59,156 bases of DNA, filler included, from Sphacelaria rigidula (GCA_964200075.2; 10 parts of 10 records of this genome joined end to end with filler, not necessarily neighbours in it), one strand, 5' to 3'. Counted from the whole stretch's first letter, positions 898 to 34,572 are shown. Numbers and translations are program-made. Notes: generated by a model not told the origin, from the sequence alone.

Positions 898-2335
898 CTG
901 TTTTGTCGTGTGTGGGAGTGATCAAGTGCGGCCAGTGTCGGTTGCGGGCGGGGGCGTACTCATTTGTTGCTTGCCTTAGTCGTTTGACCATTGACCACGC
1001 ATCCCTTTCGAGACGGAGCAGGTTGCGGGCGGGGGGGGGGGGGGGGGTAAGGGTTAGAGATGGTCTGTTATAACCAGTCTTTATAGTAATACGACTCAAC
1101 TGTAATGCATTCTTTGTCTTACAGTCGGTGCTGTACGCAGTCGGTCCTTCACGACTGGAATGGGCTGCAATATATTGCCCTGCGCTGCATGTACCGTAGC
1201 GGCTGGCGTTGGGGATAGGAGTGGTTATGGAGGATGTTTGCCCCATACTCGACTGGACGGTGTAGTGCTTACGTACGTCTCCGAACGTTACTGAAAGTCT
1301 GTACTGCCATCTTCTTGTGTACCTTCTCCCCCTATACAACGATTTGCAGTTCTTTATACTGCACCGTGTACCAGTAACCCGGGTTCGTGGTGGCGGTCAG
1401 GTCGAGGCGCGAACTCGCTACCATACAGTCGGTCAGTCAAGGGTAAACCTGGAGCTGTAGAGTGAAGTTATACTCAAACTCCAAGTACCTCGACGGGTAT
1501 GGGTATCCCATGTATCACTACTTTTTCGAAACAGATCAAAGACAGGCAACACACCTCAGCTGTCGGTGGTCCGTACCACCGGTAACCGGGTCTCGTCGGG
1601 GCGCAAGAGCGACGTGTAGAGTCACCACAGACGGTCAGTCAACAGTGACACTGGAGCCTCAGGGTACACTAGAGTACTGCTCTCCGGGTACCTCTTCCCG
1701 TGTATCCGCTACTGTAGCAGTACGTTTAATACCCTTTCCGAGGCAAACAGAGAAGCAGGAAGAAGCACCAACCCCGGCTGAGTGTACCTACCCCTCTCTC
1801 GCAGCAGTATAGACAGTAGGGTCGGCCAGCAGCGCCAAACGCACGCAATGTACAAAACCTTGAGCACGAAGAAAAAAGGGAATATGACTGAAGAGATTTG
1901 CCGGCGCAACCCCCGTCTACCGTCCTTCGCGCCAAGGGGAACATGTATAGAAGCGACACAAGACACTACATCTGCGACAACGGACTGGCGGCAAGCGGAA
2001 CGTCAACTTGACATGTTCTTCGAGAGCTTCTCTCCAGCAGGTCCTCTTCAGCACAGTCATCGCAACTCAGCTACCATAGCACCACCTTGTTTCTCGAAAG
2101 GGGCGGTGATCCGAAATGGGGGCTGCCGAAAAAAATACATGCAGCAGAAGTAAAAAACAAATACAAGCGGTCCAGAGCAGGTTTCCCGTCCACATGCAGG
2201 GCATACTGCCACACCGTACTCCGAACCCCGCTCTACACTTACAGGTAACAGTAGCACGAGCTGAAGTGCTCCAGCACGTCAGGTTGATTGTGCCTACGAT
2301 ATCATGCTTCCCCAGGCTCCAAGAAACCAACTCAC

Positions 2336-2877
2336 CTCTTGCGCGCTGTCGCCGCTGCCGCCGCCGCAATCGTCTCCTTCTGCCGGGAGCTCTCCGCCTC
2401 CCCGGCAAGCCTGGCCGCTTTCTGTTTGTCGCGCTTCTCCTTCGCCAGCCGCCGCGCCTCCAACCTCTCCTCGGACATATCCTCCTCCCTTGTCACCCGC
2501 CGCTCCTTCTTCGGCTCCGCAGCTGCGCGCTCCCGAAGAAACGATTGGGAAGCCGGATCCATTGAGCCCCATTTGTCACGATTGGCGGCCTGCCGCGCCT
2601 CCACTTCGGCGTCTCGGGCGTTGCACTCCGCTTCGTAGCGTGCGCGGTCCTTCGCGGCGAGGTCTTGAAACTTTGCCTTCGCTATTTCGTCAAGCGCCTG
2701 CCAGCGGCGGGAGATCTCTGCGCCGGCCTGTCCTACTGCTAACCCCGCGAAATCGTCTTTGTGCTCTCTATACTGCTCGCTCATGAAGAAGCCATACGGC
2801 GTTGTCGCCGACTTGATCGGCGCATTACTATTCGTGCTGCTGCTGCCGTTACTGGCGACTCCAGCGCCTGTAGACAT
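2336..2877 (-). CDS. ISWI: Exon 1 of HMG-box-containing ISWI/SNF2-family chromatin remodeller (HMG box plus charged helix)
   Basis: ATG at 2877 (MSTGAG...). HMG-box signature PIKSATTPYGFFMSEQYREHK...AGAEISRRWQALDEIAKAKFQDLAAKDRARYEAE. Exon ends AAG AG|gtgagt (donor at 2335, phase 2); the ORF-track stop lies inside the intron. Confidence 0.88.
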
Positions 2878-5826
2878 GGTCCCTGTGTCGTGTGTATTCT
2901 TAAGTGTTTGGCAATGGGGTACAGGCAGTAGAGAGAACGGAGCGATATGCTTTACCGTCAGTCCCGTGTTGTGTTCCGTGGGTAACTGTTTTGTATGGTA
3001 CAATACAGTAGAGTGAAGTACAGCAAGAACAGTACAGTACGGAAATTTGAATCTGTAGCTACAGCTGCGTAGGATATGCCAGCCGACGTTGCACCGGTTC
3101 GTGTGCATTGCGAGCGTAATCAGTAGCAAGTGCAAATCCTCGTGAACAAGACGCGGTGAACGCACAGCTCGGATGAGAAATGCCCCAAACGAGACATTGA
3201 GACTTTTTTCGAAGCCGCGCGCTCAACGTGATGTATGTGCCCCAACACACACACCACCTTGTGACGTAGATCGACAACTACAACCGTAGGATGCAGCATG
3301 GAAGTGGCTAGCTACACCTGGGGCTAAGGAGACAGGCCAAGACACACTTCAGGCAAGCATAGGACGTGGCTGAGAAGCCGATGGTAGCAACGAACAGAAG
3401 TCTACATCAGGACAGGCAACCAACACGCAAGAGCAAAAAGGAGACAAATCAATCAGGCAAAATCACAAAATCCCGCAAACCGCTAAGCGGCAGCTTTACC
3501 CAGTTGGGCCGTCCGCCACGGCAAATATTTCAAAATTTACAGAAGAACAGCTTGGGATAGCAACAGATGCCAGAGGCGCAGCGCCAACTCACAGCCAATC
3601 TCACGACCGGCGCGTCAGTACGACCTCAAACTTACCACTAGCAGATGGATCCGTGAGGTTAGGCGTGTGTCCTTGTCTCGGGATGTTGTGAGCCGCGATA
3701 CCTCTGCCACAACAGCGCTGGGTTTGGAGCTCGGTCGACGGGTAGACGCCTCCGTTAACCTAGAACCGCCATTAGTCTCAAAACGGTATGTTAGATCACG
3801 GTGGATAACACCCTTAGTGGTATTTTTGTCATCTCGTAATTTCTCGAGTATTAAGGCGCTAAAGCATGCATAAACCAACATTTTTTCGAGAACATTGTTA
3901 ACATTTATTTCTTGACGTTATTTTTTCGGCAGTTTGATAATTGTTTCTTGAGATAACTGAGGTTCAAATGCCATCATATAGGGGTGTTATTCAGCATGAC
4001 CTACGGCAGAGGCTGCTGCGTAGTGTACCTGTTTCATGGACGTGTAATCCGACAAGTTGGAGAGCTGTTCCTGTTGATTTTGTCCTGACGGATGCAATTG
4101 ATAGTAGCACCAAAATACAACAACCTGCAGCATGCAACACTAATACCTAATAATATTATTTGGTGACGGTCATGTTGCCCTTGCTCTCTTTTTCCTCCAA
4201 TTGATCTCATTACCCGATTTCACGCCTAACTCTCTCCCTTCACCTCCCCCCTCAGCCAACCGATAAAAAAAAATAATCTACTCTGCTATTTGTTTTACTC
4301 GTCGCGTCTGACTGATGTTATTTCCCAAAAAAGTTGGTGCGTCATTTATTTAGTGATCCGCTCTTCAACGTCTGAACCAGCTGCACCGTGAGGCGACTTT
4401 TCGTTCCAGAAGAAACGACGACGAGTGTGCTGTGCATTGCATTTACTGGTGATTTTTATTTCTTTATACGGTAAGTGTTATATAGCCCGAAAAATCAGCC
4501 GGCATTTTCATGACGTGTGCATTTTGGAAGTATACTTCGAAGAAATCGAATTTACATGTACATGCTTCGAAGAAATTGAATTTGCATCCGTACCCTGGAG
4601 GATAGGTGCCAATATGTTAATCACATAATCAGACAACTACGTTATTACCAGCAGTTTATTTACGAAGTTTTATCCCGATCGGTCGTACACGTAACCGTGT
4701 TGTCCCATGGATAGTAGCTGTAGTATTTTAGTGGTGGTGACGGTAGTAGCAGTGTACAGTATAGTAGTGGTATGTACTGTATATCATTATTCATTCCCTA
4801 GCTTGAATGGGTGGTCAAGGGCAGTACGAGAGCACCAAGCTAAATATAGCTCGTGCAAAATATACCAACCACTACTACTTTTACAGCGATTCTCGCTGTA
4901 CGCCAGTAATCGTAGTGTTGCAACACCCCGAAACGCATCAACTATCCTGTCGAGTGTGCCAACTACCCATGAACGTTGCCTTTTCAACCATGTTTTTTGA
5001 GAGTTTTTAGGGGCGTCAATCTGTCGCGTACGCCAACTTTTTGCTCTTCCTTCCGACTAGAGCAGCAACATGAACCAATGTCCCAGCAGTTGAAAAAAAA
5101 CGTTCGAACAAAACTCCCGGTCAAGAGCAAGGGTGAAATAGAAGAGTATATATAATATTAAAGTAGGTATGTTTTGCAATAAATGCGTAAAGCTTGATTC
5201 CTTCTTCACAATATTTGCCTAGTAGGTCTCTCGAACGAATGACTGTACATACTTTACACAATGACTGAGGACGAGGGTGTCGCTTCGCTCTGGCGCCCCC
5301 CCTCCTGCCCAACAACCACCAAAACCCACTAAACGCCCAGCCAGCCAGTAGGCCGTTTCTGCGGGCTATGTTCAGAACAGAGAGAGCACGCGTACTTCTG
5401 GAGCACAAGTTCTTGGATTCCAAAGCACCCACACCACTGGCACAGAGAGCGCCCCACATGCCATGATACAGGGGGGGGAACTTGGACCATTTCTCCCACG
5501 AAATACCACCTCAAAACCGTCATTGAAAGCAACAACATTTGTTCTAACGCGCTTGTTACCAATAAGACACACGGATTCATACCACTTGACCCCGTTTTCA
5601 CCCAATTGCAAACGCACCGCGAGTAGTTAGGTCGTCTGACATACCTGTGAGCCCCTGTTTTTCGTGGTATCAACCCCCCCCCCCCCTGCGGTGCTCCGTC
5701 TCGAAAGGGGTGCGTGGTCAATGGTCAAACGACTAAGGCAAGCAACAAATGAGTACACCCACCCCCCCCCCCCCCCCCCCCCCAGCACCACCCCCGCTCC
5801 TTTCCTGACCTGCTGAAACCAACAGA

Positions 5827-5926
5827 NNNNNNNNNNNNNNNNNNNNNNNNNNNNNNNNNNNNNNNNNNNNTTAATTAATTAANNNNNNNNNNNNNNNNNN
5901 NNNNNNNNNNNNNNNNNNNNNNNNNN
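5827..5926. other. Artificial contig spacer N44-TTAATTAATTAA-N44 (also starting at 11753, 17679, 23605, 29531, 35457, 41382, 47307, 53232)
   Basis: Identical 100-nt spacer with stop codons in all six frames, separating segments of 5826 or 5825 bp. Confidence 0.97.
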
Positions 5927-7689
5927 GTGGTTCGTTGTGGGGGCAAATGTAGGGGGCGTTTTGCCGCGGTGAATTTGGGGGGGCACAACAAACGTGGTTG
6001 AAACGCCGGGTGCAATCGTCTCAGGTGGCATGGGAGGTAGTCCCGTGGCTAGAGAGGCGACATTCGGAGTGGCGTTGGAAAGTGCAGGTGAACCAGTGGG
6101 TGAGTGATCAGAATCGGATTCAATGTCGATGGGATCGCGGGTGAGCAGACGTAACTGTTTCATCTGCTCATCGAGTGAGGATTGAGTGACGGAATGCGAT
6201 ATGTGAATAGTTCCGCCGTCGTATTGTGTTGTTGTAAAGCTTGTTCATATTGGGCTTTAGTCGCCTGCAAAGTCTTGGCGGTTTGCCGGAGGAGGCGGGC
6301 TTTCTTGTTCTGCCCCTCCGCCAAGGCTTTGCGTTTGGCTTCGACCTCACGACGGACGCGCTGGATTCCTTGAGCGTACTCGAAAGCTACACGGTTCTTA
6401 AGTTCTATTTGCGCTTGTACGGTCTGGGCCAACAAGTCGTCCCAGTACGCGGCTTGTTCCTCGCGGGAAAATTTGTCCCACGCGTGGGCTGGAATAGCAG
6501 CGGGACGGCTATGTTTGAACTGGGTCTTACCTTTGTCGCGTGCTTTCTTGGGTAGGCGCGTATACGGGTTTTGTTCCGACTCACGACCACTCATCGAGGC
6601 TACGACGTCAGAAGCGTAGGGCTCAGCAGGGGAATGATCACGAACCGAATGGTCACCACTTGCAGTAGAGTCGACGTGTCTAGTGTCACTGGTAAGAGTT
6701 TGAGCGGTGGCGGCATACAGTGGGAAATCAAGTCCCGGCTGTACGTCGGGCACCGTAGCGAGGGGAATTCCTCCCGACTGAGATCGGGCATCATCATCAT
6801 CCTCTACACTTTCAATGACTGGATCATGCAAGACTGTGTCCGACGCAAGCAGTGTTTCACCGGATTCGGAAGAGGATGTGCCTTCGTCATCGGCACGTAG
6901 CTCTAGCGAAGCCGGGGAATTAGACATTGCTTGTGTACCTGCGCGGGTGCGCGACACAGTCAGTGTAGAAAGAAGGAGGGGAATGAGCGACCGGGGTGTT
7001 GCATTGGAATTGGAAGAGACAAAGAATCTATTGTAGGAGGCTGTGGGCGTGGTGGGGGTCGGCCAGGCCCCCGTGAAAGACAGGGAGGGTCGATCGAAAA
7101 AGATATGAGAAAGAGGGTGTGGACGAGTTGTCCAGACCGGAGTCCAAGAAATGTACTGGATGAACACAGGACCTTGGGAAGAGGGTGGTACGGGAGTGTT
7201 ATCACGGATGTTGGGTTCACATACATAGTACAGGGTGGGGTCGGATGATGTACAGTCAACACCCAGGCTGGGCACAAAACAAATGTGCTGCACGGTGAGC
7301 AAATGTTGACACAGCAAGAGACGGTCATCATTAGCTACTGAAAAATAAATGGCCGGTGGTACAAGCGGCGGGGTGGGTGTAGCGAAAGGTTGCACGCTGA
7401 TACAGTGCCGGTGGTGGTAGAAAAGAGTTGGTATCTGGTGATGTACGGGCAGCTCATGTGGGAAAAAATGGAATGGGGCAGGAGAGTCACGGTATAAAGT
7501 GGACTTTACCTGGTGACTCGCATCCGCTACAGAGTAGATGGGTATCATTACTGGGGAAGTTGCCACAGATAGGCAGCTGGGACGAGAAGGTGAGGATGGT
7601 GGGGGGACAAGTGCGATTGCTCGCGTACGTTCGCGTCGGAGTCGGCGCAGGGTGCGAGCGTCTGGTGTATCAGAGGCCCTTGAACTCAT
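5927..7689 (-). CDS. 5' ORF of an LTR retrotransposon (gag-position or extra ORF), Pro/Ser-rich with a coiled coil; frameshifted near 6160 and truncated by the contig end
   Basis: 509-aa ORF plus an overlapping continuation (5879..6163) starting about 225 bp downstream of a PBS-like site next to an LTR. No recognisable capsid motif in the part present. Confidence 0.55.
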
Positions 7690-7929
7690 CTTGCCAGGGA
7701 TAGAGGACAGAGCAACAACTACAGACGGCTAGGCGATGAACAAACAAAAGAGACGCGCATGCAAGGCACACAGTGGTGGTGTAGTGTACACGGCAGCTCG
7801 GCAGTCTGAACACAACGCAACTAAAAACAAAGTACAGCAGAGGCAGTGCGGGAGCTCCAACTGTGATGTGAAAGAATGTGAAAGATGGTGAATGCACCTC
7901 GTGGAGGTTGTAATGGTGTTCACCAAGAT

Positions 7930-11752: not shown

Positions 11753-11951
11753 NNNNNNNNNNNNNNNNNNNNNNNNNNNNNNNNNNNNNNNNNNNNTTAA
11801 TTAATTAANNNNNNNNNNNNNNNNNNNNNNNNNNNNNNNNNNNNNNNNNNNNTACCCCCCCCCCCCTATCGTAGGATGACTCATGACCAAGATACAAGAT
11901 GCTGACCCAGACGCGGCGAGGAATATACTAGCAGGATACATCCAGGAATAA

Positions 11952-14900
11952 GTGAAACAGATACAAGACCTGCGACAACGAAGTCAAGCACAGAAAGAGG
12001 ATCCAGGGCTGGGAGCGCGCGCGTCAGCAACAAGAGCTACGCACCTCCAGCAGCGATTCCAACCTACGACTACTACAGCAGCATTTCAACACACACGCCT
12101 GCATACACAGGATCAAGCCCAGATGGTACAGTCTGGCATTTTGAGGGTACGTTCGCATAACAGTATTGCAGCGTGGGATGGTACGGCAAATAGTGGTGAG
12201 GAAGTAAGAGAAAAGGTTATGGTTTTCAAGCTACAAATGACAGCATATTTTAAGCAAGAGTTCTGCGAAAAGGCTCTTCACGCAACTTTCCCCATTGGGG
12301 TACATTTTGATAATGAGCGAGATTTGATCAAAAGGTTCGGGAACGACCTGGTAGGGAAGGCCAGTAGAGCATGGAGTATATTAGTCGAAAACCTTACATA
12401 CGCGTCGCCTGTTCAACAACTAACTTGTAAGACTGGGAAACCCCAGCGAGGGATGGAGGTACATTGCAGATTACTACACCGTTTCTCCAACCACAGAGAA
12501 GGTACAGTTGGATCATGAATGGCAGGCCCTCGATATGAACTTGGGAGAGGACCCCCGTATATTTCTAGATAGAGCGAAATTGATAAGGTACAACTGTGCT
12601 AAACTTGGAGTCGTGATATCAGATGCAGACGCCAACCGGCACTACATACGCCGCCTGTCAAGTGACTTCGACATCGTTTGTGGTGTATTGCGTGCTTTCG
12701 ATTAAGTAACAACAGATACCCTCGAGCGCAAGGTGATGACGGCGCATGAAGAGATGGAACTGGCCAGGAATAGGGCAGGAAGGAATCAGGATGGGGTTCA
12801 AGGCCACGCGCTCGTCGCTGCCACTGGGGGTGGTGGAGGCGGGGAGGCGGGGGCGTGCTGCAAAACGGACGACGACAAGGTGGTGAGAGATGTCGACAAC
12901 AGAGTGATGTTTTCTGTCATTTCCACAATACAACCCAGCATGATGACTCTGAATGCCACGCACAACGACATATGCACGCACAAGAAAGTCGTGGTGATCG
13001 TGGTGCGTGGAATGGTTTTCGTCAGCAGCAATACCATAGTGCAGACAGTTTTGGAGGTCGTGGGGGTAGTGGACGCAATAGGATTCCCACCCAATCACCG
13101 CAGCTCACTCAGCAACAACAACAGCAGCGACAACGCCAGCAACCTCAGCAACATCAGCAGCAAGCGAGACGTGGAGGACGGGGTGTAGGGCGTGGATTTG
13201 GCCACAGGTACGGTGCTTCGGGGCGCGGGGGCGGGAATGCCCACCCCGGCAGCCAACTACCGCATTATGATCCGCCGCAAGGTGGGTATGACTATTCAGC
13301 TTATCCTGATGGTTTATACCGCCCCGTAGGGAACGAACCCCAATTCACCACGCCGACCCCCGTAAACGATGCATCACACGCGACGAACTGGGCCACATGC
13401 ATACGTTTTGCCCATGGCGTAGAGTAGTGACGCCGCAAGTCGATCCGGGGGTACGTCATGCGCATCCCACCCAGAATCAACCTCGTCACGGAGGACACTA
13501 GCCCCCCCTGGACTCATTACTGCGGATCGGTCAACACCGTGCAACTTTGCGGTGATCAAGGGGTGTACGGCGAGAGCAGCAACGACGAACAGCAGTGGAA
13601 GGGAACGGATAAAGACGGGTGGGTGTTGGAAGACAGCAGCGACTTCAGCGGTGCAGGCTACGCGCACTGTATCCAGTTTCCCCGCAACCCCCCGCAATCC
13701 TCCGCAGCTGCCATCAACAACCAGATCCAGTCATCATCGCAACAAGGTGAACTTCAGCTGCAGCACCCTCACCAACTACAGCAGCAGCAACAACCTAATC
13801 ATGCCCAATCTGATTCCAATCTGCCTTCCTCCGGTTCAGCTTCATCCCCTGCGCCGCTTCACCTGTGCATGGCCCACACTGTGTCCCAAGGCGAGTCACG
13901 TTTTGAGTTGGGTGATTTTACTCTGGGTGTTGCTTTGCTTAACCAGAGTGGGTCGGGGTTTCATGTGGATGATGGTACAGCGGAGTGGATATGTGATAAT
14001 GGTGCTTCACACCATACCTCTGGTTTAGTGGTTGGTATGTTTGATTTAGGCCCACCCCCGAAAGGAAATGAATACATGATCGTGGGGAACGGAACAATAT
14101 TCCCTGTCAAAGCAGTAGGGAGTTTAAAGCTCAAATTCCACATGGGAAATTCCACCCCCCCGACATCCGTCGGTGCGCCCTCAGAATTTTGCGTGCAGCT
14201 GACTGATGTTTATGTTCGTGAAGGTATACATTTCAACCTTTTTCTCTGCACCAAGTGCAGAAGAAGCAGGATGTACTCCTGACTGAAACATGAGTACACA
14301 TGTTTGACGGTCGGCTTCGCTCCGATCGCAATGAGCGGTCTTCATCACAAAGGGCCACTACTTTACCGTCAACATAAGAAAACCCCCCACTTGCTGTACC
14401 AGCGGTAGGTTTTACTGCCCCTCCCCCAAGCGTTTGTGTCCAGTCCGTTCCTCCGGCGAACGTGGTAACTTCAAGTGTTGGTTTCCAGTCCGCTTCACCG
14501 GCAAGCGTTGTAATTGCCCCTCCCCCAAGCGTTCGTGTCCAGTCCGTTCCTCCGGCGAACGTGGTGACTTCATGTGTTGGCGTACAGTCCGCTTCCTCTG
14601 GAAGCGATGTACCTGCTCTCACCAACGGTGTTGGTTCCCTCTGTGCAGTCCAAGTGCTCCGCTGCCCAGACTTGAGTGTGTTCAAGGATGAAGCTCTGAT
14701 GGCTGGATTTGACGTGACCCCTCCCCAAGCTTTTTTCCGCGTTTTCTGAGTGAAGAAATGGGAGTTGTGGCTGAAAACGGGACGGCCCTTGCTGTTCTTG
14801 CCCCAAGCTCTCACCCATTTTCAGTCGGAAAACCGAAACAAGAAGTCGACATTAATTTTTTCCACGTTTCCCTGCCCCACATTCATGAGACGTTACTGCG

Positions 14901-16320
14901 AGAAACTGCGAAACAACAGGGCATTACATCGACGGGGGTACTGACGCCATGTGCGGGATGTTTGGAAGCGAAGGGACAGAGGGCAAGTATTCCGCGAAGC
15001 CTGGGCACGAGGGCGACGACAGTACTTGGCAGGGTGCATCTCGACCTCACCGGCCCACACCCTCGTACTCTGGGTGCATCAACCCATAATATGTTGGGCT
15101 GCGTCGACAGCAAGTCACGCTTCATGATGCTTTATGGCCTCGCACGTAAGTCTGACACGCTGGGGAAGGTGAAACGTTTCATCGCCGACTTTAGCGCCAT
15201 CGGTACCCCCGGTTGTTTTCGCATGGACAACGGGGGCGAGTTCACCTCCAACGATGTCGGCGCCTTCTGCGACGATGCAACGATTCGTCGTGAGTACACT
15301 GCCCCCGACACTCCGAAGCACAACGCTGTGGCGGAAAATGCAATTTGGAGGGTCACGAAGGGGGGCCACGCCGCCCGTCTTGAAGCGTGACGTCTGTTCC
15401 CGGAGTGCCGCTTCGACGACATACCTCACCTGGGGGAGAACATGGAGCGCCTGTGGCTGGAGGCTGCGGTGTGGCCAGCGGACGGGTTCAATCGTTCCGC
15501 TACTACGGCGAACCCGGAAAGATTTTCGCCGTATGAAGTGCTCACCGGCAAGCACCCGCCGCTACAGATTGTGCCGTTTCTGCAACCCGGCATGATGCGG
15601 GTCAACCGCCGAGGGAAGATGGATGCTCAGTCCGTGGCCTGCCATTTCCTCAATAATGGCAGTAACCATTCTTCATCGACGGTCGAGGCCCTCAAGGCTG
15701 CTACCGGTGTCGTCTGCTACACCAACGACGTTGTCTGGACGGTACCACGTGTGCCACTGCAATCGTAGGCAACGCCGATCGTCGGGGGGGAGGAGGCCCA
15801 TTCCAGTACCGTCGCCGCCGCCGCCGCGCCGTCAGCAGAGCAGCATCACGGGACGCCGCTCGCCGGGGGGGGAAGGTCCAAACGCCGCTCGTCGGGGGGA
15901 GGAAGTTTATGGCAGCACCGCCGCCGTCGTCGCCACACCGCTGCTCCCGCCGACATATCACACAGTGGAGTTCGGGCCGCCGCCGACGCCGCCGCGCCAG
16001 CAGATTCCGCCGACTCAGCCGATCCTGCCGCCGCCGCGCCCGCCGACTCAGCCGGTACTACCGCCGCCGACGCGTCCGTCCACTCCGCCGATGCATCGAT
16101 CGCCGCCGACATCCCCGCCGATGTTCTCCGGCTCTTCGGCCCCGATTCCGTCCCCGATACCATGAGCATCTTCCTCGACTGCGTCGCGCGATGCATCATC
16201 CGCCCCTGAAGTGATGGACCATTCTTTCTCGCCGCTTCCAATCAACATGAGGAAGGAGCTGGGTATGGAAACAGACCCCCGGCAGCCAGGGCGGACGCGG
16301 TCAGGGTCGACGCAATACAA
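11952..16320 (+). mobile_element. Decayed Ty1/copia retrotransposon: gag, Zn knuckle, protease, integrase; RT/RNaseH absent
   Basis: UBN2-like gag (GEDPRIFLDRAKLIRYNC...LSSDFD), CHFHNTTQHDDSEC knuckle, protease WICDNGASHH (~13986), HHCC (FHVSLPHIH...CAGCLEAK), rve core VHLDLTGP...VDSKSRF...RMDNGGEF...PDTPKHNAVAE. PR-IN order is copia-type. Several stops (e.g. 15388, 15766) and frameshifts. Confidence 0.9.
14416..14612 (+). repeat. Two tandem 99-bp units inside the copia pol between protease and integrase
   Basis: gcccctcccccaagcgtt...cagtccgttcctccggcgaacgtgg at 14417 and 14516. Confidence 0.85.
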
Positions 16321-18546
16321 GACAGACAAGACTGCACTAAAATTCGTTTTCAGTACTGAAAGGCGTGATGGGATGGATGAATAGCATGAGTATGTCATGA
16401 CATATTGAGGAAAAGGGCTGAAGGAAAAAATTTCAGTTTGCTAAGCAGATGGCGTTACCAAATGTCTGTACACGGGTGGGACGATTTTTTATCCTTAGTA
16501 ATATAGCATTGAATATTTTCTAGTAGGGTTTGAGACACGAATAGAATTGGGCTGTGTGTAGGAGGGCTAATCGAATATGAGAGTATGAGACTTGAGAATT
16601 AAGTAGAGTTGAGCCGTGAGTAGGAGGGCTAATCGAATATACTCACACTCAATGATTGATACATGTAAGCAGGCCTGGATGCGAGGGAAATGGATAGTGT
16701 GATTGGAACATGACATATGGGTGAATGACAAGTTATGAGATACAGTTCTGTTATTAAAGGTATACCCGGTTTGTTGGTTGCAGCGAGAATCCGCTGAGAG
16801 GCACACGCCCAATCGCGTGGCCAAGGAATTAGGCTCTGACGTGTTGTTTTTCCACATGAGTGGCTTTTCATGATTGACCACGCCCCTTTTTGGCAGTGCA
16901 CTTTTTCTGGGTTTTTACGTTTTGGGAAGAGAGTATAATATACTGTATCAAGAAGGGAATCAATTCAACAACAGAGGTCCCACGACCTTTTCTTACACAT
17001 AGACCCCAGCGCCAAATAGGAGATTCAGCCCTTACTTGCCTGCCACTTTTCCATGCTTCTGCCACCCGCGATATCGCATCCACAAACTCTAAGAGATACT
17101 ACTATCTTCCGCTGGATATCAGAGATGGATTCATGCTTCGAAGTACCAACAGTACCCGAACGATCGCACAGCCAGCCAACTAGAAGCCAACATAAGGCCC
17201 AGCCGAGCATAACCACGAACTTTACGCCCTCTCAAATATTGCCCCCACTACATGATACGAAGTATGCCGTCACTAGCGCTCACAACGACTCCCCAGAAAA
17301 CATGCTGTCCCCTAGTCAATGATGCGCTTCAGTAGCAACATAGTCACGAACTTGTGCAACAAGCACCTTGGGAGTTGACGTCAACATCCGCTCTTCACCT
17401 ACCTACCGCCTTCAGTATAGATATAACTCATATGAATGGAAACCAAGAATGTAGTGATATCCTAGGTATCTCGGAGTGATGCTGCGATAGGATTTGCACT
17501 TTTGGGGCCAAACCTGGCCTGAGAAAATTCAATATCTGAGAACATTGTGACCTCCGCCCAAACCTCAGACTGGAATTATCTCATGGGTCATGGATGCATG
17601 TTCCACCCTGAGGCTCTAAGAACTGTGGTGAGAGTCAAAGGTGATTCGACATGCCTAAATCCCGACTTTCTCTCAGGCNNNNNNNNNNNNNNNNNNNNNN
17701 NNNNNNNNNNNNNNNNNNNNNNTTAATTAATTAANNNNNNNNNNNNNNNNNNNNNNNNNNNNNNNNNNNNNNNNNNNNCTCACCCCTGACCGCAGGTACT
17801 AGCCAGTTCCTGCGATCAGCCCTCCGGGCGCGTATCTTCGTTCCGAATCAACGGCCCATCATTGTACTGTCCCCCTTCCACCGCATCACGCCGCGATCCG
17901 TAACATGGCCTCTCTGGCTTGTCCGTGCACTCCTTAGTTTTTACTACTGTCTCAATTGTTATGGTTATCATGATCGTTGCTCAAGCACTGTGATGACGGA
18001 TCTTCTTAAGACGGGGCATAAAGTGACATTTCCTCCTTCAACCAAACATGCGGCATATTTATCCATGTACAGAACAGTATGCATTGATTCGTACGTACTC
18101 GCTCACCATCACTGCAGGGCAAAGCGGGTTTCCAGCACAAGGTGTATTCACCTTAACCCAGAACAGCTTATCCAGAATGTCAGGGTATCGTGATCATAGT
18201 TTCAGGGTCGATTCAGTTTCTCTTTTGTAGTTGTGGTTTTTAGCTCATTTCACGTTTCTGTTCCAGAGGATTGAAAACCAGGGTGCCGACCGTCATCGAT
18301 TCTGAAGAATCGAGTTCAAGTCGGATGTAAAGAGGCATGATTATGTAACCGTCTGCATACGGGCTCAAACATCCTCACCCCTGACTGCGGCACATTGCCA
18401 GTTCCCGCAGTCAGCCCTCCAGGACTTTTCCATCAGAAGGACGGGTCCATCATCGTACTGCCCCTTCCTCCATGTATGCCGCGATCCATAACAGCAAACC
18501 TTGCCGGATTCCTCCGGGAGACTCCACAGCGCAAACAGGAGCTCTC

Positions 18547-21027
18547 CTAAGGTACACGTTGCGAGACTCCCAATTCCAACTTCACGCTTTCTCGGTCCCC
18601 CTTGATGTTCATGTCATCCGCTGGAACGACCTGTCTCGACGCCACTGACATTGTCGTACGAGGTCGCTTTGCCGTTCTACTACTAGCGCTGCAATTGTTC
18701 GACCTATCGATACTGCTGCCGATACTAGCAGATATCACTGTTTTCCCACACGTTGTCGCCGCGGCTTTCGCCCCATATGCACCACTTGAAACAGGGGTGG
18801 ATTTCAGCTCTACCTTGGCACCCATGTTTACCCAATCAACATCTCGATGAACCATGATGGCGCATTGTGCGAGCCCCGGCGGTGGTGCCCCATCGCTCCG
18901 CGTGTCACTTTCGGGAAGTGCACAACCGCGAGACCCAGAACACTCAGTTGCAGGGCGGGAGTAGGCACCGGAGGAACGGTTAGATGTGCCTCGGCCATCG
19001 ACATTTACATGCATGCCATGCCCATCTTCAGTCACGGCATGGTCAGGAATGCCTCCGTTACGAACGTTCTCACGTATGTAGACACGGTCCGCGGTCATCG
19101 AGGCAGCGTCTCGAGGTCCAACGCTGCTCTCGTAGCCCCTGTACTCCTTGCTCGCGCACTCCCCGCTGTCGAAGCGAAGCACACCTATCCTAGCATGGAC
19201 GCAGGACTCCGCTTTCCCCGTGCCCGGTAAGCCGTCCCGCGGCTGTTTCGAGCCGCCCCTGCTTGCACAACTTATTTTCTCGACATCGATCATGTCGGCC
19301 ATCGCGTGCTCGATGCGGAAGTCGGATTTCCTGCTGCCTGCCAAGCGGTACGGCCTTAAGCAGCCACCACTGCCGGATAGCTCCTCAGGGACATGAACTA
19401 CACTCTCTGTGTTATACCTGGTGCAGACTTTGGCGTTTCTATTGCTCACCACGCCGTACGACGGCACTGTGGAGCAGCCATCTTTGCCGCGCACGTTCCT
19501 CGTGACGTCGAACATCAACTCTCTGGCATGCTTTGTGCAGAATCCGGATTTCCCGCTGCTCACGATGCCGTGTGACGGCTGTGTGGAGCCGCCGTTGTTG
19601 CCGCAAACCTTCGTGACAACGTTAACCATTCCTTGTTTGGCATGCTTGGCGCAGAATTCGGCTTTCCTGCTGCCCACTACACCGTACGACGGTCGTGTGG
19701 AGCAGCCGGCGTTGCCGCATACTTTGTTAACAACTTGAATCATCCCCTCTCTGGCATGCTTGGCGCAGAATTCGGCTTTCCTGCTGCTCACCATGCCGTA
19801 CGACGGCCGTGTGGAGCAGCCGTCCTTGCCGCAAACCTTGTTGACAACGTTAACCATCCCCTCTCTGGCATGCTTGACGCAGAATTCGGCTTTCCTGCTG
19901 CCCACCACGCCGTACGACGGCACTGTAGTGCAGCCGTCGCTGCCGCAAACCTTGTTGACAACGTTAACCATCGCCTCTCTGACATGCTTGGCGCAGAATT
20001 CGGCTTTCCTGCTGCCCACCATGCCGTACGATGGCGGCCTGGAGCAGCCGTCGTTGCGGCAAAATACCCTGAAAACGTCAATCATCCCCTCTCTGGCATG
20101 CTCGGCGCAGAATTCGGCTTTCCTGCTGCCCACCATGCCGTACGACGGCCGTGTGGAGCAGCCGTCGTTGCCGCATACTCTCCCGACAACGCGAACCATC
20201 CCCTCTCTGGCATGCTTGGCGCAGAATTCGGCTTTCCTGCTGCCCACCACGTCGTGCGACGGTTGTGTGGAGCAGCCGTCGTTGGCGCATACTCTCCCGA
20301 CAACAGCAACCATCCTCTGTCTGGCATGCTTGGCGCAGAATTCAGCTTTTCTGCTGCCCACCATGCCGTACAACGGCCGTGTGGAGCAGCCGTCGCTGCC
20401 GCATACTTTGTTGACAACGTTAACCATCCCCTCTCTGGCATGCTTGGCACAGAATTCAGCTTTTCTGCTGCCAACCATGCCGTACAACGGCCGTGTGGAG
20501 CAGCCGTCGCTGCCGCATACTTTATTGGCAACGTTAACCATCCCCTCTCTGGCATGCTTGGCACAGAATTCAGCTTTTCTGCTGCCAACCATGCCGTACA
20601 ACGGCTGCGTGGAGCAGCCGTCGTTGCCGCACACTCTCTTGCCAACGCCAACCATCCCCTGTCTGGCATGCTCGGCGCAAAATCCGGCTTCCCTGCTGCC
20701 CACCATGCCGTACGACGGCACTGTGGAGCAGCCGTCGTTGCCGCATACTTTGCCGATAACGTCCACCATTCTCTCACTGGCATGCTTGGCACAGAATCCG
20801 GCTTTCCTGTTGCCCACCATGCCGTGCGACGTCACTGTGAAGCAGCCGTCAATGCCGCATACTTCGCTCGTTACCTTGGCTATTCCCGCTGCGGCATGCT
20901 TGATGCCAAATTCGGCCTTCTGGCTGCTATTCACACCGCAAGAAGGACAATCCGTTGACGGATACGATGCCCACTTCCGAATAGCGAAGCACCAGAAGCA
21001 GCTGCGCCTTGCGGCACCACCAGCTAC
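18547..21027 (-). CDS. EsV-1-7-family Cys/His tandem-repeat protein (large terminal exon)
   Basis: 795-aa ORF (GTG start in the track); frame stays open up to an acceptor-like cttgtctag| at 21028. Eleven canonical 38-aa repeats VCGxDGCSTxPxYGMVGSRKAEFCAKHAREGMVxVVxK (C-x4-C-x16-C-x2-H), about 4 degenerate ones, then a low-complexity tail ending AKRPR...VKLELGVSQRVP. Matches the EsV-1-7 repeat known from Ectocarpus siliculosus virus and brown algae. True start codon not determined. Confidence 0.88.
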   Translation of the reverse strand, partial: VAGGAARRSCFWCFAIRKWASYPSTDCPSCGVNSSQKAEFGIKHAAAGIAKVTSEVCGIDGCFTVTSHGMVGNRKAGFCAKHASERMVDVIGKVCGNDGCSTVPSYGMVGSREAGFCAEHARQGMVGVGKRVCGNDGCSTQPLYGMVGSRKAEFCAKHAREGMVNVANKVCGSDGCSTRPLYGMVGSRKAEFCAKHAREGMVNVVNKVCGSDGCSTRPLYGMVGSRKAEFCAKHARQRMVAVVGRVCANDGCSTQPSHDVVGSRKAEFCAKHAREGMVRVVGRVCGNDGCSTRPSYGMVGSRKAEFCAEHAREGMIDVFRVFCRNDGCSRPPSYGMVGSRKAEFCAKHVREAMVNVVNKVCGSDGCTTVPSYGVVGSRKAEFCVKHAREGMVNVVNKVCGKDGCSTRPSYGMVSSRKAEFCAKHAREGMIQVVNKVCGNAGCSTRPSYGVVGSRKAEFCAKHAKQGMVNVVTKVCGNNGGSTQPSHGIVSSGKSGFCTKHARELMFDVTRNVRGKDGCSTVPSYGVVSNRNAKVCTRYNTESVVHVPEELSGSGGCLRPYRLAGSRKSDFRIEHAMADMIDVEKISCASRGGSKQPRDGLPGTGKAESCVHARIGVLRFDSGECASKEYRGYESSVGPRDAASMTADRVYIRENVRNGGIPDHAVTEDGHGMHVNVDGRGTSNRSSGAYSRPATECSGSRGCALPESDTRSDGAPPPGLAQCAIMVHRDVDWVNMGAKVELKSTPVSSGAYGAKAAATTCGKTVISASIGSSIDRSNNCSASSRTAKRPRTTMSVASRQVVPADDMNIKGDRESVKLELGVSQRVP
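19609..20862 (-). repeat. 114-bp coding tandem repeat, 11 canonical units
   Basis: Repeated ggcatgcttggcgcagaattcggctttcctgctgcccaccatgccgtacgacggc...gagcagccgtc at a 114-bp period. Confidence 0.95.
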
Positions 21028-24000
21028 CTAGACAAGCATCGTTGACAGGCGGCGTTCCCAGAGAACAAGGAAAAAAATATTGTGTCGAACTCATCGTCAA
21101 CAAGGTCAGCTAGAGATCGCTTTCCATCATCACCCTCTCACGGAGAACAAGCAGGTACGAACAGATGATCCCGCGCGAATTGTCACCAGTGAATATTCAT
21201 TTGCGCCCAAGATGGCGGCAGGACGAGTCACCTAGTATACGCAGAGATATGGCGACCGTGGGCTCGACGCTGCGGTAGCTCAGTGGCCATATCGTCGCGA
21301 AGTCCAATCAGTAGAACCAGGTGGTTTTTACTTGAGTATCCCTGCTGGGAATTTAACTTCTACACCCATCAAGGGCCATGTGATCGGGACTAATACTCTC
21401 AAGTGCTGGTGATACACCACTTCAAAGACAAGTCATTTATCAAGTTTTGAGTTCAACGCAGACGTCCCAAACATCGTGAGTCCAACGTTTGGTTTACCGA
21501 GCGGAAACGGAGGTGAAAAAAAAGTCCAACCCGTTGGGTGAGGGATCCCCCGTATGCTTCGACGGGATTCTGTACTAAACAAAATGTAATGAAACATTTC
21601 CCTGCATTCAGGAGCGAGCGCATGAATGCGTGAAGGCTGGAGAGCTTTCCCCGAACAAAGAGGGCCATGCAGGGTTCGCGAGGTGGATAACACCTGCGTT
21701 TTAGTGGTCGACTCGCTATCCCCGGGTGATCTTGGTTAGGGTGCGATTCAGGTGTCTGTACAGTCGTAGTTAACGCTTGCCACAAGCAGACGAAAGCCAG
21801 TGAACCTTTGTCCCTCGATGCCATGACGAGTCGGCACCGCAAAACATGCATGACCGTCACTGCGTTTCTTCCGGGATATATAAACAGAGTGGAATGGGAG
21901 CGGAACTCCCATGCTCCCAGTCCGAGATTTGGTTGTCTCGTGAGGCTCGGGAAGAAATGTCACGGGATCAGTTTCGTTCGTGTAGGGACAGTCGAGACAA
22001 GACGGGATATCTCATGCATACTGCCCATCGTGGTTATCGATCATGCCTGTGCCACCCAGATCGTTCACATGACACGCTTCGTTCTGTATGTTGGCCATAT
22101 ATCCCATCCGACGGGTTCCTCCGAAAATGGCGGTCCCGTCCAGCCCTGTCCATCGTTTGCTACAAGGATGAGTCTAACGGGAAAATTCCACCATATAGTG
22201 CACGGTGCGCGATAATGCTACCGTACCGTCGCGACAAAACGGGAGAACGATATCGTCCCGTCCGGTCTATAGACCTCTGTCACTCAAGATCAGATTGACA
22301 TGTGGACTCCTCCCATCAGGGGCACATGGACTTCAGCAGCTTTAGCTGTTTATGTAGTAACCCTCAGCATAGTACAGGAGAACAGGACCATATAACCTCT
22401 CTCCACCAGAATAACAAAACCGGCTGTACTCGTCATGGAGGTCACCATCACAGAGTCCGGCAATCAGACCCGCAACTCCACCTACAAAGTCCCTGACCTT
22501 AGGTAACAATGGTGGCTAGGTCTACAGCACCCCCAAAGCTCTCTACTACCAACAAGTAGTTACATCAGAGCTTGACAAACTCAGACATCACTGGTGCCTG
22601 ATAGTACCGTCGTTTTCCGCAAAAAATAGCAATCTCTTCCGCTGCTTTCGACAACAGCTCCATTCAAGCTTGCCCCACTTTCGAACAACTCGCAAGAGAT
22701 TCCAAGAAAATATCGTCCATCATGAACATGCAATCACGCTACTTGCACCACTTCAAGTTACAAAGCGATAGCTAGCGCCAAATTCTCAAATCTTCGCCCA
22801 CAACAAGTCTCTTGACTCTTCATCGGCACGAAACCGGAAATTTCAGCGAACGTCAAATCCCAGAGCATTCGTGACTCATCGCCTCTCTCATCCGGAACAA
22901 GGTTCTTCTCAACATACGAGTACGTTCAACACCTGCGCAACGGAGTGCAATAGCCAAATTATACATCATCCTCACGCTAGAAGGAAATAATGCACCCAAC
23001 ACGTCTAAAACGCACTGACCTCTTGCTTCTGCAACAACGTAAAAAACGCATGCATCGCATGCCTCCCCGCCGTCAAAGCTCTAATGTCTCAACTTGCCTT
23101 CATTTCATCAAGACAATCAAAGGAAAGCCATGGCTCAAACCGCTTTTCAAGTCATGCATACAAATCCAACGACGGCGAACGGACCTCGACCTCCGCCATC
23201 ATTCACCACCCGTGGTACTATCGTTCTCAAACTCTTGTTTTCGAACAAATCCCAGACATTTCTATATTTCGTTTGGGTCTTGGATCGTCATATCCCATCC
23301 GTGCATCAGCCAAAATGTAGAAATATTGATTCCCTCGACACTCTTGCGGTCCACCTGCACCAGTTCTTCGAACAAATGGACGCATCATCCACATGCTCCT
23401 TCTGACATGAACGGAAAACCAACCACGTACTCATTCAAACACGTGACAATCCATACAAGAACATGCCACGGTCAAACATCATTGATGCATGCGCGCATAA
23501 TGTCTTTATCTTCAACCACCGGAAGGACTCGCGTCATACCTGCTCACATACGACGAACCTACGCATTTCGTACCTTTCAGCTCATTTTCACGCTAACAGC
23601 AGCANNNNNNNNNNNNNNNNNNNNNNNNNNNNNNNNNNNNNNNNNNNNTTAATTAATTAANNNNNNNNNNNNNNNNNNNNNNNNNNNNNNNNNNNNNNNN
23701 NNNNGTCCCGGCTTTGTAGGGATGCGAGGTCAATGGTCCTATGACTATGGCATGCATGATCATAAGTACACCCCCCCCGTAGCATACAGTGCAGACTGCC
23801 CCAATTACTCCCGGTGAAGGCACAAATGAACAAGCCTTACTGGCGTTTTTGGGTCTCGAAACAATTATTTAGCACGAAAAATCGAGAGGTTTTGCGGTTC
23901 AGTTAGCAAGGCAGAGCCTTAGGGTTCATCTTGGAAAAGAAAAAGAAAAAGCGAAGAGCAAAGTGAGCGTCCGATAGCAGCATATTGAATTTGGTCGACG

Positions 24001-33052: not shown

Positions 33053-34162
33053 CTAGTCCTCCCCAGTATCATCCTCATTCTCAAGCGCCAAGTCTGAGTA
33101 AGCTTTATCTAACCCCTCATCATCAAGCGTCACTTTAGCATCACTCTTCGATTTATCGTCATCATCCACAAGGGTATCCCCCCTCCCTGGGCTCGAGCCT
33201 AACGCCTCTTCAAGAGCCTCCAACACTCCGCCCTCCTGGTTTCCAATACTCGCATCTCCGTCCCTCAGACAGGTATCAGTAGCATCTTCCTCATCCCAAA
33301 TATTGGAGTTTGACGGTAGGGCATCACCTCGTCCATCGATTGGGAGTGGATCTGCTGCTTCTTCGTCGCCTGACGCCTCCCCAACAGCCTTTGACGTTTC
33401 GTCCTCTCGGTTTTCATTGCTAGCATCTCCGTCCCTCAGACAGGCATCAGCAGCATCTTCCTCATCCCGGTTTTCGGGGTTTGACGGCAGGGCATCACCT
33501 CGTGCATCCGTCTGGGGTGTATCTGTTGTTTCCTCGTCGCCTCCACTTTCAGCATATCCGGCGCTACCCCCTCGAATGTCCTCATCCGAATCCGTGTTAC
33601 CACCATGCCGCACTGATTCCCCCACATCATCAGATACGGACTTGTGGTTGTGAACCCCGTCGTCGCCATCACACCCCGCAATACCACTAACATCACCACC
33701 GGCAACCCCGTCATCTTGCCGCACCGTCACCGACGACGATGCCCCGTCTTCAACCGCAGATTCTCTATCATCACAATCACCGTGACCATCATCACTTGCC
33801 ACAACATCACCACCTACATCACTATTCACCGCTTCCGAATCTGCTACGAGTGCATCACCCGCCGTCGTTATCGCCTCCGTCGCCTCTCCCTGGGCCACCG
33901 CGGCCGACGAAGCTAGCCCTTCCAAGAGCGACTTGGCCTTCGCCGCTGCCGCCGCAGCCGCCGCTGATGAGGTCGTCGGTAGCGAAGACTTATCCTCCAA
34001 GCCCCGAGTTTTCCCGTGGGCAGATTCAATATCGCCGTCAGCCTGGAGCGACGACGGCGCGGGGGCTTCAGAAGGGGGTTGCGCAGCAGCACTGCATGCT
34101 TGGCTGTGACCGCGAGCCAGAGACGCAGCTTGGACGGAGAAGTCAGCCAGCCGGGCGCGTAC
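33053..34162 (-). CDS. Probable terminal exon of an unknown gene; long acidic low-complexity tail with a 57-aa duplication
   Basis: atttcacag|GTA VRARLADFSVQAASLARG... open for 369 codons to TAG at 33053; D/E/G/A-rich. Confidence 0.65.
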   Translation of the reverse strand, partial: VRARLADFSVQAASLARGHSQACSAAAQPPSEAPAPSSLQADGDIESAHGKTRGLEDKSSLPTTSSAAAAAAAAKAKSLLEGLASSAAVAQGEATEAITTAGDALVADSEAVNSDVGGDVVASDDGHGDCDDRESAVEDGASSSVTVRQDDGVAGGDVSGIAGCDGDDGVHNHKSVSDDVGESVRHGGNTDSDEDIRGGSAGYAESGGDEETTDTPQTDARGDALPSNPENRDEEDAADACLRDGDASNENREDETSKAVGEASGDEEAADPLPIDGRGDALPSNSNIWDEEDATDTCLRDGDASIGNQEGGVLEALEEALGSSPGRGDTLVDDDDKSKSDAKVTLDDEGLDKAYSDLALENEDDTGED

Positions 34163-34572
34163 CTGTGAAATGCGCATAATCGTGTGGGTGGGTTGATTTC
34201 GGTCAGTCCAACAGAGCAAGCAAATCGCGCATGGGTTTTGCTTCTTGTCATCACATGAGTACTTATACCCCCTGAGATCCACGAAAACAAAAACAAATTG
34301 ACTTAATGAATGCTAGGCGATTTGGGTATCTTCGCAGCAGGAATAACGGTGCACGAAACCCCAATCACGAAGAGTGAACGGTGGGCATACATAGGCACAG
34401 TCCAAGCGTGAATTCGAGTTCGTGTGGTCAAATGGTACAACGTAACAGACAGCATTAGGGTATTAGGGGCGGGAAAACGCCGGTTTGTTCCCCGCCAGAT
34501 GTGCTCGGGTTGTTCCTTCGAAGCATCTGATTTCCGTCATTGAAAGCGACGGGACGTACGTGAAGGGACGTA

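Follow-up and report, generated by a model that had tools for sequence, protein, structure and literature searches.

A long, homogeneous EsV-1-7 repeat array in Sphacelaria rigidula: replacements concentrated at a few unit positions, with no demonstrated residue code

The founding paper on the EsV-1-7 family is said, by the papers that cite it, to be that of Macaisne and colleagues (2017). The family is among the largest gene-family expansions in brown algae and includes a developmental regulator, IMM (short for IMMEDIATE UPRIGHT), and the accessible portions of the literature describe no demonstrated function for the repeat. According to the available text of a preprint, there are 2018 EsV-1-7 proteins in 31 genomes, with up to 335 per genome, and IMM combines a unique N-terminal domain with five EsV-1-7 repeats (10.1101/2024.02.19.579948). 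The EsV-1-7 genes of Ectocarpus are described, in the available part of another report, as being without any other Pfam domain (10.64898/2026.04.27.720984). Excerpts of two further papers hypothesise that EsV-1-7 proteins are zinc-finger transcription factors (PMC12629598) and report a Tc1/mariner transposase with an N-terminal EsV-1-7 domain (PMC12477816). Because the transcription-factor hypothesis is already in print, the idea of nuclear DNA binding is not new. In the literature on EsV-1-7 repeats that we searched, which did not include the founding 2017 paper or the preprint supplements, we found neither a proposal of a residue code nor a report of a nuclease fusion.

Here we describe an EsV-1-7 gene of Sphacelaria rigidula (GCA_964200075.2) that lies at 18547-21027 in a stretch of 59,156 nucleotides (the window). 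The original prediction was that this gene encodes an array of near-identical units in which a few variable residues, set in a nearly fixed scaffold, might read nucleic acid by a code, in parallel with TALE, PPR and C2H2 zinc-finger arrays. The observation of the array itself is confirmed. The gene is a further member of a known and very large family; it is long and homogeneous but ordinary, and it is not a new kind of gene. The account that we favour, and that we consider rather likely to be correct, is that this is a host EsV-1-7 gene for a putative nuclear nucleic-acid-binding regulator, whose array evolves by duplication and exchange between units, with no demonstrated code. We first set out the array and its variation, and then the relatives, the structure model and the alternatives.

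The gene's open reading frame (ORF) is on the minus strand, spans 826 codons from stop to stop, and ends with a TAG at 18547-18549. Tandem Repeats Finder reports a period of 114 bp at 19443-20864 (12.5 copies, 85% matches, 0% indels, score 1801). A regular expression run on the translation finds 11 exact C-x4-C-x16-C-x2-H motifs, which start at residues 57 to 437 with a constant step of 38 amino acids; this confirms the 11 near-identical 38-residue units at the coordinates where they had been placed. All 44 of the ligand residues in these units are intact, and the mean pairwise nucleotide identity of the units is 84%. Both lists of variable residues in the original prediction, the third residue after the second Cys (V, V, Q, R, R, Q, R, P, V, R, R) and the linkers between the units (DVIGK through NVVTK), were reproduced letter for letter. 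The array is strongly basic, with a net charge of +30 and an isoelectric point of 9.3. A hidden Markov model built from the 11 units recognises 16 unit-like stretches (1 degenerate, 11 intact, and 4 decayed), all of them in the minus-strand frame. Elsewhere in the window we found no further EsV-1-7 units, whether with this model (best E 0.35) or with tblastn searches using 120 relatives (0 matches). Two long frames on the opposite strand, 19576-20958 (+; 460 codons) and 19739-21031 (+; 430 codons), were rejected as genes: they are open across the repeat because the 114-bp period is free of stops, and the family match from Pfam is in the minus-strand frame only.

The predicted membership in the EsV-1-7 family is clear. 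PF19114 (EsV_1_7_cys) matches the protein with an E value of 1.2e-175 and 569.5 bits (the cut-off is 25), in 13 stretches. In three other Pfam rows no stretch passes by itself, and the C-terminal domain of RBR proteins appears only as a sub-threshold echo. Among 8000 scored candidates, 141 proteins are related at E <= 0.001, and 120 of these were listed and are used for all counts of relatives below. PF19114 is present in all 120, and 38 residues is the commonest spacing of units in the relatives as well. Among those listed, the highest identities are to other Sphacelaria rigidula proteins (61% over 34% of the query). The listed relatives also include proteins from Ascophyllum, Scytosiphon and Ectocarpus that are named "EsV-1-7", and others that are encoded on giant-virus contigs. 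A search of PHROGs gave nothing informative, and no viral hallmark genes turned up when 67 of the longer ORFs in the window were scanned with Pfam. We take the gene to be a host (brown-algal) one.

To describe the variation, we number the 38 positions of the unit such that the ligands are Cys1, Cys6, Cys23 and His26, which leaves 34 non-ligand positions. Across the 11 units, entropy is highest at positions 33, 36, 9, 35, 3, and 37. Parsimony on a UPGMA (unweighted pair group method with arithmetic mean) tree of the units gives 63 replacements, and 30 of the 63 are at these six positions (P = 0.001 against a uniform spread over 38 positions, or P = 0.006 over the 34 non-ligand positions). The predicted clustering of non-conservative changes at a few positions is thus borne out within this array. 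None of the 63 replacements affects a ligand (P = 0.0009).

The claim of a nearly fixed scaffold holds for this array and for a few other homogeneous ones, but not for the family. We compared the array to 554 strict units from the relatives; strict units occur in 111 of 121 proteins (this one included). Across the 554 units, variation is seen at almost every non-ligand position, and within arrays, 33 of the 34 non-ligand positions differ in 0.45-0.85 of unit pairs (the mean over all 38 positions is 0.59). By mean identity between units (0.73), our array ranks 7th of 88 arrays, for which the median is 0.45, and its 11 intact units are the most strict units in any of the 88. Because the array is among the more homogeneous ones, its apparent fixed scaffold is better explained by a comparatively recent or homogenised expansion, along with moderate purifying selection, than by a TALE-like design. 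Furthermore, the entropy profile of the array resembles both that of the family and the mean within-array profile of 73 arrays (Spearman correlation of 0.61 for each), and the way in which the 63 replacements are spread is consistent with the within-array profile (global P = 0.11). A fixed scaffold with a few variable residues, in the manner of TALE or PPR proteins, is not seen family-wide, since 33 of the 34 non-ligand positions vary within arrays, although positions 9 and 36 stand out in nine other homogeneous arrays (see below). At the most variable codons, the ratio of nonsynonymous to synonymous differences per site (pN/pS) is 1.09 (see below).

These results bear on the possibility that the array is a programmable reader, in which each unit would read one or more bases of DNA or RNA via position 9 and the linker, and in which exchange between units would make new specificities. 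Some of the evidence for this alternative is from comparing each unit to its counterpart in related proteins (18 orthologue-like protein pairs, of which one had no usable unit, gave 74 colinear unit pairs). The mean difference between colinear units of related proteins is 0.26. Position 9 differs in 0.80 of comparisons between units but in just 0.27 of comparisons between colinear units, and for position 33 these values are 0.68 and 0.09, so both positions are unit-specific yet conserved. The distribution of the 63 replacements does not follow the between-orthologue profile (P = 0.0002); the main reason is position 33, with 6 replacements where 0.58 were expected from the between-orthologue rates (Bonferroni P 0.0009). 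The residues most often found at position 9 across the family are R, Q, I, K and T. Also, in nine other homogeneous arrays (5 nuclease-fused and 4 from Sphacelaria), mean entropy peaks at positions 36 (1.65) and 9 (1.60); positions 11, 35, 37, and 38 are next at about 1.0, position 33 is at 0.83, and the Spearman correlation with our array is 0.75.

On the other hand, a code does not sit well with older arrays that vary at 33 of 34 non-ligand positions, with no fixed scaffold, or with replacements that are spread as they are within arrays of the family. Four of the six hot positions are among the least constrained positions of the unit and among the fastest between orthologue-like pairs: position 3 (0.68 between units and 0.51 between colinear units), position 35 (0.84 and 0.42), position 36 (0.85 and 0.41), and position 37 (0.83 and 0.39). 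In addition, unit 11 has different hot residues in this protein (P0001) and in its colinear relative P0122: R and V, respectively, at position 9, and N and D at position 33. Overall, positions 9 and 33 behave as would be expected of positions with unit-specific roles; this is suggestive, but any old repeat protein shows the same, and such behaviour is not a code. We consider the programmable reader to be quite improbable. What a long and homogeneous array does show is which positions diverge first, namely the unit-specific and yet conserved positions 9 and 33 and the least constrained positions 3 and 35-37.

By the NG86 method, the 11 units have an overall pN/pS of 0.62; the ratio is 1.09 for the six hot codons and 0.44 for the remaining codons, and synonymous diversity is raised at the hot codons too (0.40, versus 0.19 elsewhere). 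In neutral simulations on the tree, it is unusual for a single codon to accumulate 5-6 replacements (P ~0.0003-0.02), which would favour a programmable reader; but in a count of states that does not use a tree, no codon survives correction for 34 tests (the best is codon 33, with P ~0.002, or 0.06 after multiplying by 34). The tree-based counts of replacements are inflated because the units exchange sequence. In the four-gamete test, 59 of 153 informative site pairs are incompatible, and the minimum number of recombination events (Rm) is 7. The units are mosaics, and therefore recombination or conversion among the 114-bp units, as originally proposed, is plausible; mosaic units are also what a programmable reader would have. 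Units 3 and 4 differ at just 4% of bases, while the other pairs differ at 10-25%.

The relatives on viral contigs provide a different kind of evidence. After their arrays, many unnamed relatives (P0019, P0020, P0033, P0047, P0079 and others) have a conserved domain of about 190 residues. A motif of the form E.DE..H plus RPD or NPD marks this domain in 72 of the 120 listed relatives, and 53 have the strict three-part motif; the invariant residues of the viral domain are P-D ... E-x-D-E-x-x-H ... R ... R-x-N-x-D. The arrays that are fused to it have 5-9 EsV-1-7 units. Pfam, which we ran on 12 of the relatives, leaves the nuclease-like domain uncovered, except for a marginal row for Hjc in P0033 (E 0.079). 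However, a structure model of P0079 (mean predicted local distance difference test, or pLDDT, of 82.5) matches PD-(D/E)xK nucleases. Its top match from Foldseek is the Hjc resolvase 2eo0_B (E 2.6e-3, probability 0.99), and the next rows are McrC, R2 endonuclease, Bax1, and restriction enzymes. With VIA-align, the top match is the catalytic domain of I-Bth0305I (3r3p_A; Z 8.4, root-mean-square deviation 3.1, 92 of 97 residues), and Vsr (1vsr) has a Z score of 6.8. I-Bth0305I, of the "EDxHD" family (PDB 3R3P), is according to its abstract a homing endonuclease whose catalytic domain is Vsr-like (PMC3239194). P0079 also has relatives on IMG/VR contigs, many of which are labelled GVMAG (94 of 96 candidate stretches were confirmed and 80 were kept, L001-L080). 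The nuclease-fused relatives look like giant-virus proteins.

By analogy, the fusions to this nuclease and (in print) to a transposase would be the best available argument that the repeat targets DNA, and the programmable reader would gain from them as well. Given the nuclease-fused relatives and the net charge of +30, the proposed binding of nucleic acids is plausible for our protein; the residue-to-base code that had been proposed along with it is not supported beyond this plausibility and the suggestive behaviour of positions 9 and 33. This locus and its nuclease-fused viral relatives give a concrete handle on whether, and how, the repeat binds DNA. At the speculative end, EsV-1-7 arrays might be a fourth, zinc-based class of modular DNA readers, in which residue 9, together with 11, 33, and 36, would set the target; giant viruses would use them to aim Vsr-type nucleases, and brown algae would have hundreds of rapidly re-targetable transcription regulators, of which this 11-unit array, its units reshuffled by exchange, would be one that is freshly diversifying. 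We regard this as a long shot.

The original prediction also described degenerate, cap-like units on either side of the array. Degenerate units are present, but we do not think that they are caps. On the C-terminal side, units 12-13 are modelled as disordered (AlphaFold2 block pLDDT of 31-39), so we rejected these units as folded caps; units 14-15 lie outside of the modelled part. On the N-terminal side, unit 0 is perhaps not translated, because the first in-frame ATG is downstream of it and a TAG is upstream.

The history of the C-terminal units is visible in P0122. When we searched with residues 590-826 using a word-indexed method, none of 2533 candidates had E <= 0.001, but an exhaustive search with the tail found two relatives, P0122 and P0123. 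P0122 is colinear with residues 429-819 of P0001, with 57% identity and one gap over 391 residues. (P0122, whose contig is 3.1 kb long, begins at a linker Met, and its number of units is not comparable to that of P0001.) Units 13-15 are without ligands in both proteins. Unit 12 is intact in P0122 and broken in P0001, while the counterpart of unit 11 in P0122 has lost its His. This comparison of units 11-15 implies that the array decays at its C-terminal edge and that the relics are old.

The tail contains the features that had been predicted for it, a basic patch that resembles a nuclear localization signal (KRPR) and a psi-K-x-E motif (VKLE), along with a second such motif (AKVE), and all have counterparts in paralogues. 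A KRKR-type patch, an internal motif of the MKVEL type, and a terminal motif of the VK[LI][ED]L.[VG]S type recur in paralogues from Sphacelaria and Ascophyllum. The pattern [VIL]K.[ED][LFWIV] occurs within 45 residues of the C-terminus in 12 of 121 proteins, and 9 of these 12 are named brown-algal or Sphacelaria-like proteins in which it resembles VKLELGVS. As judged from the sequences, the psi-K-x-E motif and the basic cluster are putative sites for small ubiquitin-like modifier (SUMO) and for nuclear localization, respectively, that are kept in relatives.

We modelled residues 19-550 (532 residues) with AlphaFold2, using an alignment of 120 relatives. The mean pLDDT is 74.5, and 231 residues are at 90 or above. 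Units 1, 3-7, and 9-11 are modelled confidently, with block means of at least 81, while unit 2 and most of unit 8 are low (44-67). The confident units have strands at 12-14 and 31-33, with a bridge at 22 and, between Cys23 and His26, a three-residue helix at 24-26. This layout places position 9 in the loop after the Cys1/Cys6 knuckle, position 33 at the end of the linker strand, and positions 35-37 in the lead-in to the next unit.

In the account that we favour, each unit would bind one zinc ion, as the retention of all 44 ligands indirectly suggests, and would fold as a small module of a knuckle, a hairpin, and a short helix, and consecutive units would be stiffened into rods by a strand that the conserved M-V-N-V linker forms. 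The protein would be nuclear, its strongly basic array would bind nucleic acid (most likely DNA or chromatin), and the tail motifs would recruit partners or be modified by them, whether of a SUMO type or a co-repressor type. A nuclear protein with a nucleic-acid-binding array would be a regulator of transcription or chromatin, a role that published work already proposes for the family. The array would be a comparatively homogeneous tandem expansion that is shaped by duplication, by exchange between units, and by decay at its C-terminal edge. The four ligands would have been kept since this expansion, and the scaffold would have been under moderate purifying selection, with replacements accruing at about the neutral rate at the sites that usually vary in this family (loop residue 9, linker positions 33-37, and position 3). 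Each unit would in this way come to differ from the others, which falls short of a demonstrated recognition code.

Several findings weigh against this account, and some of them would favour a scaffold that binds proteins, or at least does not bind nucleic acid, as LIM, B-box and RING-type modules do; the charge of the array and the viral fusions would then be uninformative for the algal proteins. The model has a predicted template modelling score (pTM) of only 0.50, so the overall shape of the array is not trustworthy. When it was compared to solved folds with Foldseek, no match had E <= 0.001 (the best was 0.42), and in a wide VIA-align comparison over 48,161 chains the best Z score was 2.4. 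The weak rows from these fold comparisons, all of them insignificant, are zinc modules that bind proteins: the LIM domains of PINCH, the RBR of Parkin, the B-box of CONSTANS, PHD and PZP modules, and RING and U-box domains. The sub-threshold Pfam echo of the RBR C-terminal domain fits this picture, and DNA binding by the family is not demonstrated in the accessible portions of the literature. The nuclease motif, of the pattern RPD ... E.DE..H ... R[FY]NPD, is absent from all 14 of the named brown-algal relatives and from P0001, in which neither Pfam nor the motif search detected a nuclease or any other enzymatic domain. For the algal proteins, a link to nucleases that comes from distant viral relatives is guilt by association.

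Even so, we think that a protein-binding scaffold is unlikely. The matches to protein-binding modules have E >= 0.4 or Z <= 2.4. The array has a net charge of +30, and EsV-1-7 arrays are fused to a nuclease fold of the Vsr type (in 72 of the 120 listed relatives) and, in the available text of one report, to a transposase (PMC12477816), both of which need to be targeted to DNA. Searches of PDB by sequence were also uninformative: with five units there were 0 matches at E up to 10, and with a profile of 45 array-plus-nuclease proteins there were only 2 rows, both with E > 1. The lack of a fold match for a 532-residue array model does not show that it has a new fold.

Other findings against the favoured account concern the start of the gene and its transcription. 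The first in-frame ATG is codon 70, with none earlier in the ORF, so the start is not located. The TAG just upstream of the ORF looks like a splice acceptor, going by its sequence. Contigs from two sequencing runs of one study cover 18464-19667 and 20525/20576-21030; that these runs are RNA is only a tool's guess, which again counts against the account. These contigs stop fitting at 21030, and their 25 and 87 further letters do not fit the window. Contigs of runs X1 and X4 bridge 21030 (they span 20576-22293 and 20576-21170). This hints, weakly, at transcription of the exon and at an exon boundary at 21027-21030. The two guessed-RNA runs give no cover at 21047-22192, an observation on which we place no weight. 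Because the guessed-RNA contigs fit up to 21030, the TAG is perhaps in the mRNA. If so, translation may start at codon 70, with unit 0 and the first third of unit 1 being leader sequence and 10 units left complete. Alternatively, a chance overlap of 3 letters may hide a canonical AG acceptor, and an upstream exon may provide the start. The public gene models of the close relatives P0007, P0017, P0024, P0029, P0049, and P0122 begin at a Met in the linker between units (MVNV... or MLNV...). These models are probably shortened at the 5' end, and the same may hold for our gene.

The uncertain start brings up the possibility that this is a young copy with fast turnover and little or no function, which is drifting towards a pseudogene, and that its variation is neutral decay after amplification. 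The absence of an ATG before codon 70 and the in-frame TAG upstream would be expected of such a copy, as would the four decayed C-terminal units and the high-copy repeats that flank the gene. Also, the overall pN/pS of 0.62 is high, which may mean relaxed constraint (as may the ratio of 1.09 at the hot codons), and position 33, which is conserved in the family, has unusual residues in 4 of the 11 units. These too weigh against the favoured account. However, a drifting copy would not be expected to have an open frame of 826 codons with 44 of 44 ligands intact and 0 of 63 replacements at ligands, or a pN/pS of 0.44 in the scaffold. Its tail motifs are kept in paralogues from two brown-algal orders, its tail and decayed units align to P0122 at 57% identity with a single gap over 391 residues, and the guessed-RNA contigs cover the exon. 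We consider drift towards a pseudogene to be very unlikely.

Table. Features of the EsV-1-7 repeat gene, with coordinates in the window.
Feature	Coordinates	Strand	Remarks
In-frame TAG directly upstream of the ORF	21028..21030	-	Pyrimidine-rich stretch before it; splice acceptor (tAG, then G) or part of the transcript
EsV-1-7 repeat protein ORF	18547..21027	-	826 codons + TAG; the sole coding exon or the last one
Degenerate unit 0, residues 19-56	20860..20973	-	C-x2-C in place of C-x4-C; Gly where the third Cys would be
First in-frame ATG (codon 70, inside unit 1)	20818..20820	-	Alternative start if the TAG is in the mRNA
11 intact 38-residue (114-bp) C-x4-C-x16-C-x2-H units	19606..20859	-	Residues 57-474
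Four decayed units 12-15, residues 475-626	19150..19605	-	Each without one or more ligands
Tail, 200 residues, S/A/G/R-rich, no detectable domain	18550..19149	-	57% identical to P0122
Internal AKVE, residues 737-740	18808..18819	-	MKVEL, MKVEV or IKAEL counterparts in paralogues
Basic KRPR patch resembling a nuclear localization signal, residues 787-790	18658..18669	-	Paralogues have KRKR- or KRNR-type patches in their second halves
VKLE, residues 815-818, within VKLELGVS	18574..18585	-	C-terminal psi-K-x-E

The window consists of ten blocks of 5826 bases that are joined by 100-base spacers of the form N44-TTAATTAATTAA-N44 (at 5827-5926, 11753-11852, 17679-17778, 23605-23704, and then every 5926 bases), and there is a separate gap of 10 Ns at 52529-52538. 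The context of the gene beyond 17779-23604 is uncertain because the blocks are perhaps not neighbours in the genome. Within its block, high-copy sequence flanks the gene at 17800-18563 and at 22193-23500. In all four runs, contigs from these flanks have summed depths that are hundreds to thousands of times that of the gene, with many variant letters. Also, 17779-17828 and 18374-18423 are 78% alike. Among the 67 longer ORFs that were compared to Pfam, only two match at E <= 0.001. One is an HMG box (PF00505, E 8e-10) in a 296-codon ORF at 2335-3222 (-). The other is an integrase-core (rve) fragment at 14713-15387 (+), with E 1.7e-6 and 28.6 bits (the cut-off is 32.6), which is probably the remnant of a retroelement. 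The ORFs at 6163-7728 (-; 522 codons) and 33056-34312 (-; 419 codons) have no match in Pfam.

Among known systems, the gene is closest to the other EsV-1-7 proteins (PF19114), such as IMM and the phaeovirus EsV-1-7. They share the C-x4-C-x16-C-x2-H unit, the period of 38 residues, and the absence of other Pfam domains, and the closest relatives of P0001, among those listed, are brown-algal. P0001 differs in having the most strict units (11), in having units that are more alike than most, and in having the tail of its own subfamily, with KRPR and VKLELGVS. IMM, which we compare by its published description only, as given in part, has five repeats and a unique N-terminal domain, whereas P0001 has 11 units and a long tail. 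The array-nuclease proteins of giant viruses share with P0001 a repeat with a 38-residue period, but they have a C-terminal nuclease-like domain of about 190 residues, which P0001 is without; also, they are encoded on viral contigs, while P0001 lies amid repeat-rich, eukaryote-like DNA. The homing endonuclease whose catalytic domain resembles the viral one, I-Bth0305I, is without EsV-1-7 repeats, judging by its abstract (PMC3239194).

Arrays of the C2H2, TALE, PPR and PUF types are related to P0001 by analogy and not by sequence (the only Pfam family above its cut-off is PF19114). The ligand set of EsV-1-7 units is CCCH with an x16 spacing, which is unlike the spacing of C2H2 fingers. In contrast to TALE and PPR arrays, a pattern of two variable residues in a fixed scaffold is not seen across the EsV-1-7 family. 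What EsV-1-7 arrays have in common with C2H2, TALE, PPR and PUF arrays is that short units (28-38 residues) are repeated in tandem, that they are basic and can be fused to nucleases, and that the units differ within an array while each of them is better conserved between orthologues.

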